A stretch of 4,335 nucleotides of DNA from IMG/VR virus record IMGVR_UViG_2711768058_000007, positions 1 through 4,335 of that record; one strand, written 5' to 3'. The position numbers and the translations under genes were made by a program. This document shows, piece by piece, positions 1,253 through 1,478 of the stretch. The stretch's first letter is position 1, and each line of letters starts with the position of its first letter. The stretch is from a virus. Taxonomy: Duplodnaviria > Heunggongvirae > Uroviricota > Caudoviricetes. The notes below the pieces were generated by a model, which was given only the letters and a program-made list of their open reading frames with translations, did not search any database and was not told the origin of the DNA.

Positions 1253-1384
1253 TCACCCCACCAGCCCTGCTGAAGTCAACGCCATCCAGGTTATGGAAAG
1301 AAAAAGAGCAACCAGCATTAGTGAAAATGAAATACCGACGATTACACAAAGGCCCTTCGCCAGCATTATGAGTTTGTCTGACAT
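1253..1384 (-). CDS. Unlisted 43-aa hydrophobic mini-protein (MSDKLIMLAKGLCVIVGISFSLMLVALFLSITWMALTSAGLVG)
   Basis: Hand-translated from the minus strand; below the ORF-track size cutoff. AAGAGG lies 5 nt upstream of the ATG, and the stop is 11 nt before the Rz start. Predicted 1-2 TM helices. No homolog recognised. Confidence 0.35.
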   Translation of the reverse strand: MSDKLIMLAKGLCVIVGISFSLMLVALFLSITWMALTSAGLVG

Positions 1385-1386
1385 CT

Positions 1387-1467
1387 TTACCTCTTAATAG
1401 CAGTAATTAACCGGGCAACCACCCATAAAAACGGAATCAGCCAGACCAGCAAAAATTTCCAGTCCAT
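1387..1467 (-). CDS. Unlisted 26-aa hydrophobic mini-ORF (MDWKFLLVWLIPFLWVVARLITAIKR), or 29 aa from the ATG at 1476
   Basis: Hand-translated. No clear SD, but the ATG at 1476 lies 2 nt after the antirepressor stop (TGA-AG-ATG), and its own stop is 2 nt before the next mini-ORF (TAA-AG-ATG), so translational coupling is possible. Single predicted TM helix. Confidence 0.22.
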   Translation of the reverse strand: MDWKFLLVWLIPFLWVVARLITAIKR

Positions 1468-1478
1468 TTTTATCATCT

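Follow-up and report, generated by a model that had tools for sequence, protein, structure and literature searches.

A pair of putative small membrane protein genes between the antirepressor and Rz genes in the lysis region of an Escherichia coli prophage

Several phages have small inner-membrane proteins, encoded within their lysis cassettes or working with them, that tune or enable lysis; P2 LysA, Mu releasin (gp25), LambdaSo Lcc6 and antiholins such as S21-71 are of this kind. The P2 lysA gene lies between the endolysin and spanin genes. Type I toxins (Hok, TisB, Ldr, Ibs and ZorO) are small proteins of similar size, each with a single very hydrophobic helix. Lcc6, of 65 amino acids (aa), and Mu releasin are described in the Shewanella LambdaSo preprint. 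Here we analyze two small open reading frames (ORFs), ORF1 and ORF2, that lie on the minus strand between the antirepressor gene (ant) and the Rz spanin gene in a tailed-phage sequence of 4,335 nucleotides (IMG/VR record IMGVR_UViG_2711768058_000007, positions 1 to 4,335; the whole of this stretch is called the window below).

No sequence similarity was detected between ORF1 or ORF2 and LysA, releasin, Lcc6 or S21-71. Both are shorter than these proteins and lack a soluble domain, and Lcc6, unlike ORF1 and ORF2, is encoded outside the lysis cassette. They also differ from the type I toxins: no antisense RNA gene or Rfam match, no promoter of their own and no homology were found, and both ORFs sit within a phage late operon, to which their translation is coupled. 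In contrast, ORF2 shows no essential difference from the family that comprises PHROG 4906, WP_001280922.1, ECs_1966 and ORF53 of phage P13374. We consider it fairly probable (roughly 60%) that ORF1 and ORF2 are true protein-coding genes of the late operon and encode small, translationally coupled accessory inner-membrane proteins that possibly modulate lysis.

Gene junctions and predicted membrane helices

A first-pass annotation, made from the sequence alone, had described two back-to-back minus-strand ORFs of 26 to 29 aa and 43 aa in the 237-bp gap between ant and Rz (1242-1478, counted from the Rz ATG start). Both are present, and an arrangement of this kind is rarely produced by chance. 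When the gap was resampled 5,000 times with a first-order Markov model, ATG-initiated ORFs spanned 92.5% of the strand or more in 0.46% of resamplings, and two ORFs with hydrophobic helices occurred in 0.42%, so that the chance expectation is below 0.5% on either count.

At the end of ant, the minus strand reads ...GCA GCA TGA AG ATG ATA AAA ATG GAC TGG..., and ORF1 has in-frame ATG codons at 1482 (31 aa), 1476 (29 aa) and 1467 (26 aa). The two shorter starts had been recognized, but the one at 1482, whose ATG overlaps the ant stop as ATGA, had been overlooked. Read from this ATG, ORF1 (1387-1482, minus strand) has 31 codons, ends with TAA at 1389-1387 and encodes one C-terminal membrane helix. 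ORF2 (1253-1384, minus strand; 43 aa plus TGA, exactly as first described) encodes a single-pass membrane protein and begins 2 nucleotides (nt) after the ORF1 stop, in the sequence AAGAGG-TAA-AG-ATG. Its Shine-Dalgarno-like motif, AAGAGG (1390-1395, minus strand), is contained in the final codons of ORF1, at a distance of 5 nt from the start codon of ORF2. Thus, both the AAGAGG and the repeated stop-AG-ATG junction that had been reported are there in the sequence. The ORF2 TGA in turn overlaps a GTG codon of the Rz frame as GTGA (1256-1253); the Prokaryotic Genome Annotation Pipeline (PGAP) prefers to this GTG an Rz start at the ATG at 1241, 11 nt after ORF2.

The prediction of a hydrophobic helix in each ORF was likewise upheld. 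The best 19-residue Kyte-Doolittle window scored 2.26 for ORF1 and 2.65 for ORF2, and AlphaFold2 modeled ORF2 as one continuous helix of residues 2 to 38 rather than a hairpin, with a mean predicted local distance difference test score of 89.6. The positive-inside rule (K4 and K10) predicts an N-in topology for ORF2, whose C-terminal tail is uncharged. At 43 aa, with that single helix and about 10 residues beyond the membrane segment, ORF2 lacks the periplasmic domain, usually a coiled coil, with which an i-spanin reaches the o-spanin; the i-spanin of the window is Rz (PF03245).

The four genes would form a coupled chain, ant -ATGA- ORF1 -TAA AG ATG- ORF2 -GTGA- Rz, along which ribosomes would pass from ant to ORF1, ORF2 and Rz by termination and reinitiation. 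ORF2 would be a bitopic inner-membrane protein with a charged cytoplasmic N terminus, one helix and an uncharged tail facing outward, and its last codons would double as the ribosome-binding region of the next gene.

On the coding strand, a promoter and terminator scan found nothing, and positions 700 to 2500 have no promoter-like site there; one such site was found on the plus strand (1922-1949), inside ant. No Rfam family matched anywhere in the window at E≤1, and the fold of the ORF1-ORF2-Rz start region (z = 0.31) gave no sign of a structured RNA; a novel small RNA may nevertheless exist at the locus despite the Rfam result. Since no coding-strand promoter-like site, RNA family or unusual structure was found, and a stable hairpin follows the endolysin gene, a Q-antiterminated late transcript is the simplest route of expression for both ORFs. 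Late transcription antiterminated by Q is established lambdoid biology.

Selection, translation and annotation of the two ORF families

ORF2 loci were collected with a 24-nt DNA core alone, so that intactness of the frame was not selected for. The collection held 181 locus instances (some contigs were counted twice) and 33 alleles, and only five copies depart from the 43-codon frame: three have lost 11 nt, and two have gained 1 nt close to the start. In the three shortened copies, the shifted ORF ends exactly on a TGA overlapping the ATG of Rz (ATATGA), perhaps by coincidence, or perhaps because a stop beside the Rz start is what has been kept.

Comparison of the window allele with the Sakai allele gave a proportion of synonymous differences (pS) of 0.41 and of nonsynonymous differences (pN) of 0.17, a ratio of 0.41 (other frames, 0.85 and 0.86). 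Against a diverged clade of 44-aa forms, pN/pS was 0.44 (other frames, 0.88 and 1.22; Fisher p=0.008 for the one allele pair tested). Within the diverged clade it fell to 0.16 (other frames, 0.91 and 1.45), with 13/9/25 variable sites at the three codon positions. Seven core residues (V14, G17, S19, F20, L22, M23 and V25) were invariant. The start signals of ORF2 were maintained in four unrelated upstream contexts, with purine-rich motifs equivalent to AAGAGG in the three other than that of the window. In one context, the change of the usual ATG to ATA is compensated by a new start codon that lies five codons further upstream and overlaps the stop of another ant, giving a 48-aa form. Because the deeper comparisons are frame specific and the start signals are preserved, ORF2 is, as far as its alleles can tell, protein coding, and purifying selection on it is on the whole moderate, though strong in places. 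The nucleotide-invariant core was also considered as an RNA or promoter element. This idea was rejected, as most of the variation in that part of the diverged clades is synonymous; the invariance is partly imposed by the 24-nt search pattern.

ORF2-like sequence was present in 1,717 of 5,426 complete E. coli genomes, about a third, often in several copies and in up to 11. A scan of 185,579 species-representative genomes returned a single match, NZ_JPLE01000251.1, a 328-bp contig of a Xanthomonas pisi assembly with 70% protein identity to ORF2. This contig most probably reflects contamination with E. coli or phage DNA, and there is therefore no evidence of ORF2 outside Escherichia. In a collection of 5.8 billion proteins, the relatives of ORF2 formed 106 protein clusters, all from E. 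coli. A HMMER search of 1.84 billion representatives gave 29 matches, and those inspected were fragments or variants of the ORF2 family.

ORF1 belongs to a different family. Full-length members of PHROG 6632 have 44 aa (e.g., MVDFSKLIRELRLMIKQLPDWKFLLIWAIPFLWVVARLITAIKG), and in prophages lacking the antirepressor the 44-aa gene follows the terminator-like hairpin of the endolysin gene and precedes ORF2. The last 24 residues of ORF1 (WKFLLVWLIPFLWVVARLITAIKR) correspond to the C-terminal membrane helix of PHROG 6632, and both genes have the same junction with ORF2 (stop, 2 nt, ATG). ORF1 accordingly matched phrog_6632 only in part, as a C-terminal member (E=1.7e-4, profile positions 20 to 43 of 45), while a full-length 44-aa relative gave an E value of 1.3e-14. 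Nucleotide homology between the window and the antirepressor-less version begins only at ACTGGAAA, the D/N-W-K codons, and the first seven residues of ORF1, MKMIKMD, derive from the flank of the antirepressor module. ORF1 is thus an N-terminally replaced remnant of a 44-aa gene, a point that the first-pass annotation had overlooked. ORF1 retains the helix pattern conserved among alleles of its family (W-K-F-L-L-x-W-x-I-P-F-L-W). The helix part of the family had a pN/pS of 0.28, against 0.94 and 1.22 in other frames, with 5/4/11 variable sites by codon position, and the ATGA-coupled start and open frame of ORF1 were found in 32 of 32 antirepressor-linked locus instances. Judged by these alignments, ORF1 is a chimeric member of a real family and is possibly degenerating; since its N-terminal part was replaced when the KilAC module recombined, it may be only partly functional. 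Codon-level constraint had been named as a check on the two ORFs, and both families indeed evolve as coding sequence in the predicted frame.

Translation was another check. In E. coli O157:H7 Sakai, the ORF2 homologs are ECs_5707 (prophage Sp5) and ECs_1966 (Sp10), both between antirepressor and Rz genes, and their sequence is that of XECs191 of Hücker et al. (2017). XECs191 is one of 465 intergenic ORFs that were judged translated from ribosome profiling in that study (PMC5597208). In LB, it had a translatome value of 12.6 reads per kilobase per million mapped reads (RPKM), a coverage of 0.55 and an RCV of 0.43, which exceed the thresholds of the paper (1, 0.5 and 0.25, respectively); in BHI, it did not pass them (PMC5597208). 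Peptides of the ORF1 type and of the 60-aa type described below were not found in the Sakai ribosome-profiling tables. Translation therefore has published support for the Sakai homolog of ORF2 but none in those tables for ORF1-type peptides, and the copies of ORF1 and ORF2 in the window would be translated by extension. The Sakai form and P13374 ORF53 belong to the same protein family as ORF2 (43 to 48 aa, with an MSDKLI...CVIVGISFSLMLV core) and are likewise encoded directly upstream of Rz. They differ from it in starting five codons earlier, at an ATG that overlaps the stop of another antirepressor gene, and in the helix and C-terminal region; the P13374 form is 91% identical to ORF2 of the window by tblastn.

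The ORFs had been thought unlisted and likely unannotated, which proved incorrect. On an identical E. coli chromosome, PGAP calls ORF2 as WP_001280922.1, and ORF2 matches phrog_4906 (E=3.3e-24, residues 1 to 43 on profile positions 7 to 49 of 49), as does the 48-aa form (E=3.9e-28). ORF1 has no PGAP call on that chromosome, but the exact 31-aa protein is deposited in GenBank and UniRef as "putative membrane protein" or "Prophage protein," and ORF1 is annotated in phage PhiR5_1. Neither ORF significantly matched a Pfam or NCBIfam model, holin profiles included; the sole hit was a nonsignificant match of the 48-aa form to phrog_13249 (E=0.029). The PADLOC models did not match ORF1, ORF2 or two related small ORFs at E≤1, and a PDB sequence search with the family profile was negative. 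Literature searches with the locus tag, the peptide strings and ORFs "between R and Rz" returned nothing, and a review of Shiga toxin (Stx) phage lysis cassettes does not mention ORF1 or ORF2. The ORF2 family is thus catalogued yet uncharacterized, a set of hypothetical proteins and not a discovery. The main gain here is a comparative view of the locus, along with a concrete connection to the spanin step that can be put to the test.

A possible role at the endolysin-spanin junction

The placement of both ORFs inside a lysis cassette agrees with the gene annotation on either side of them, and the neighbors of ORF2 vary from prophage to prophage. Among the 181 instances, ORF2 was preceded by a 60-aa ORF in about 80, by the 44-aa ORF in about 50, by the KilAC antirepressor with ORF1 in 32 and by a P13374/Sp5-type antirepressor in 19. 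The C-terminally anchored 60-aa ORF (MEKYKRILLRLTMKNGLELKAPVTDDISRALAFAIKWVAVGIAVSPMLYGLAKLVIALKS, PHROG 1115), with a pN/pS of 0.18 in frame, takes the place of ORF1 in antirepressor-less prophages; its helix aligns end to end with that of the 44-aa ORF, a weak pairwise match (E=0.003). Downstream of ORF2 were found Rz genes of several types, extra small ORFs (a 28-aa relative of PHROG 4493) or a methyltransferase gene. In tblastn maps of 84 loci, ORF2 followed the endolysin region and mostly stood directly 5' of Rz or another gene for the outer-membrane step, and in most loci the end of the ORF2 match coincided with the start of the Rz match. Because the genes on both sides of ORF2 interchange, the endolysin-spanin junction is a mosaic hotspot for accessory genes, of which ORF2 appears, in the loci compared, to be the most constant element. 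The pair in the window belongs to a larger group of small membrane ORFs that replace one another at this junction, a point missed in the first-pass annotation. In some prophages, the gene between ORF2 and Rz encodes a Dam-like DNA methyltransferase (255 aa) or one with a DPPY motif (314 aa), sometimes preceded by a further membrane ORF of 28 to 40 aa (MSTEFIRATAFAIRIVAIAVLIREIRWW).

The diverged ORF2 clade occupies a second, unrelated lysis cassette, in which Phage_holin_8, Phage_holin_3_7 and a GH108 endolysin are followed by homologs of the 60-aa ORF and of ORF2 and by a lipoprotein (e.g., NZ_CP178694.1, 3360704-3361912, and phiP27). The lipoprotein gene (60 aa, PHROG 7528) lies directly 3' of the ORF2 homolog, and no Rz or Rz1 is annotated. 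In a spanin census, the phiP27 lipoprotein is entered as a "separated" o-spanin and is paired with a 64-aa i-spanin candidate (PMC6139136, supplement). This candidate looks doubtful, since it begins at a TTG codon and overlaps a 90-aa ORF encoded by the other strand.

ORF1, as the membrane-helix half of PHROG 6632 with its cytoplasmic N-terminal part replaced on recombination of the KilAC module, and ORF2 would act together at the inner membrane late in infection, as nonessential factors that modulate lysis at its membrane steps, whether the triggering of the holin, the release of the endolysin or the action of the spanins. A lysis-modulating role of the pair, argued from position, is the most likely one. 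It is favored because the placement between the endolysin and the outer-membrane step recurs in two unrelated cassettes (S21/R21/Rz and holin_8/holin_3_7/GH108) and because small accessory lysis proteins (Lcc6, Mu releasin and P2 LysA) are known. A narrower version, in which the ORF2 family and its partner (the PHROG 1115 or PHROG 6632 ORF) are an unrecognized component of the final, envelope-breaching stage of lysis in E. coli temperate phages, as a cofactor or regulator of the spanin or outer-membrane step or of its timing, is a speculative proposal at long odds. It rests on the position of ORF2 after the endolysin gene and mostly immediately 5' of Rz/Rz1, and on its position immediately 5' of the census o-spanin lipoprotein in GH108 cassettes without a recognizable i-spanin. 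If the peptides do modulate lysis, the holin-endolysin-spanin scheme of Shiga-toxin-type prophages would gain a component; in Stx phages, the release of toxin depends on lysis. The locus by itself shows that two conserved membrane genes of fewer than 50 codons occupy a recombination hotspot within the lysis cassette, and the RefSeq pipeline still skips ORF1.

Several observations weigh against assigning the pair such a role. Within the allele group of the window, selection on the ORF2 protein was weak: the all-pairs pN/pS was 0.61 (other frames, 0.75 and 1.08), variable sites were spread almost evenly over codon positions (24/18/23) and the synonymous share of single-site variants, 26%, equaled the random expectation. 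Only Escherichia prophages carry the ORF2 family, the 1.84 billion representatives yielded no distant relative of it, and neither ORF has homology to a characterized holin, antiholin, toxin or defense protein. The ribosome signal of XECs191 is weak; the cultures were uninduced, and the paralogs to which it maps are identical. ORF1 is without the charged N-terminal 19 to 20 residues of PHROG 6632 and has the module-derived MKMIKMD instead. A nonsense allele of its family (TTA to TGA) occurs in 7 to 10 loci and a frameshifted copy in one, and the few changes among antirepressor-linked ORF1 copies were four nonsynonymous to one synonymous. Lastly, the rrrQ-rzpQ junction of the K-12 Qin prophage has no ORF1- or ORF2-like ORFs; as Qin-type cassettes do without them, the ORFs are dispensable for the core pathway.

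The low constraint in the window allele group is also what would be expected if ORF2 acted in cis, as a leader that delivers ribosomes and a ribosome-binding site to the next gene (Rz here) while its peptide is incidental. The ORF2 stop overlaps the next start, or lies within 11 nt of it, in most loci; its conserved G-rich last codons (GGG CTG GTG GGG or GGT GGA) lie at the expected downstream Shine-Dalgarno site; and the three frameshifted alleles still stop on the TGA that overlaps the Rz ATG. Yet such a device would not need 43 hydrophobic codons. Every ORF2 allele keeps the hydrophobic helix, the core residues are invariant and the length is fixed, and ORF2 is intact even where a methyltransferase gene or small ORFs come next instead of Rz. 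Together with the strong frame-specific purifying selection in the diverged clade, this makes a purely cis-acting leader unlikely.

A second explanation, that the pair is moron-type cargo unrelated to lysis, acting in superinfection exclusion, in interference with host membrane or defense functions or in a toxin-like manner, is similarly improbable. It would suit an accessory hotspot that has taken up two antirepressor types, two methyltransferases and interchangeable small ORFs, as well as the stable hairpin after the endolysin gene, the resemblance to type I toxins in size and hydrophobicity and the RNA and ribosome signal of the Sakai homolog in uninduced cultures. That signal can, however, be explained by spontaneous induction. 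The lack of a coding-strand promoter-like site and of an antisense or RNA family signal, the tight coupling to the flanking late genes, the absence of a PADLOC match and the position shared by two unrelated cassettes all speak against it, and the last of these points to lysis.

The least probable alternative is that one or both ORFs are decaying relics without function, chiefly ORF1 as a frame 5'-truncated by the antirepressor insertion and open by chance: the 24 codons that alone are common to the 44-aa family, the missing PGAP call, the disrupted alleles, the excess of nonsynonymous changes and the many defective host prophages (a terminase pseudogene was seen) would all agree with it, but the 32 intact coupled copies and the in-frame constraint on the ORF1 helix do not, and for ORF2 the selection, annotation and footprints argue strongly against it.

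Surrounding genes

All genes of the window lie on the minus strand and correspond to the late and lysis region of a lambdoid, Stx-phage-like E. coli prophage, in the order DUF1378, DUF826, holin, YdfR/DUF1327, lysozyme, antirepressor, ORF1, ORF2, Rz (with Rz1) and TonB_C lipoprotein. The 451 bases around ORF1 and ORF2 are 100% identical to several E. coli chromosomes and 99.6% identical to phage Lys8385Vzw and Stx1a-converting phages. The holin gene (3380-3595, minus strand) encodes a class II, S21-like holin and is separate from ORF1 and ORF2. Between it and the gene for the 177-aa lysozyme (2448-2981, minus strand) lies the YdfR/DUF1327 gene (3032-3376, minus strand), which has no assigned function and is found in many, not all, related cassettes.

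About 100 nt 3' of the lysozyme stop and within the late operon, the minus strand can form a hairpin (2305-2342; GCAGAGGCACC-GUAAU-GGUGCCUUUGU, -19.2 kcal/mol, z = -3.9) with a weak U-tract; the antirepressor-less relatives have a different and stronger terminator-like hairpin at that place. The ant gene (1479-2174, minus strand) encodes a 231-aa protein with a KilAC domain (Pfam PF03374, E=8e-28; phrog_63, E=5e-58), which PGAP names "phage antirepressor protein," and is an inserted accessory module upstream of ORF1.

The Rz i-spanin gene occupies 783-1256 on the minus strand (PF03245, E=2e-48; phrog_13, E=3e-73). Embedded in it in the +1 frame, and taken from the ORF list, is the gene for the o-spanin lipoprotein Rz1 (845-1030, minus strand), whose translation has a lipobox (VVSAC) and a proline-rich mature part and which we take to be like lambda Rz1. 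Downstream of Rz, where Sakai Sp5 has bor, stands a gene for a 108-aa lipoprotein (118-444, minus strand) with a lipobox (LVMGC) and a TonB C-terminal domain (PF03544, E=9e-15). PHROGs calls this family (phrog_1267) "Rz-like spanin," a name that seems to be a mislabel.

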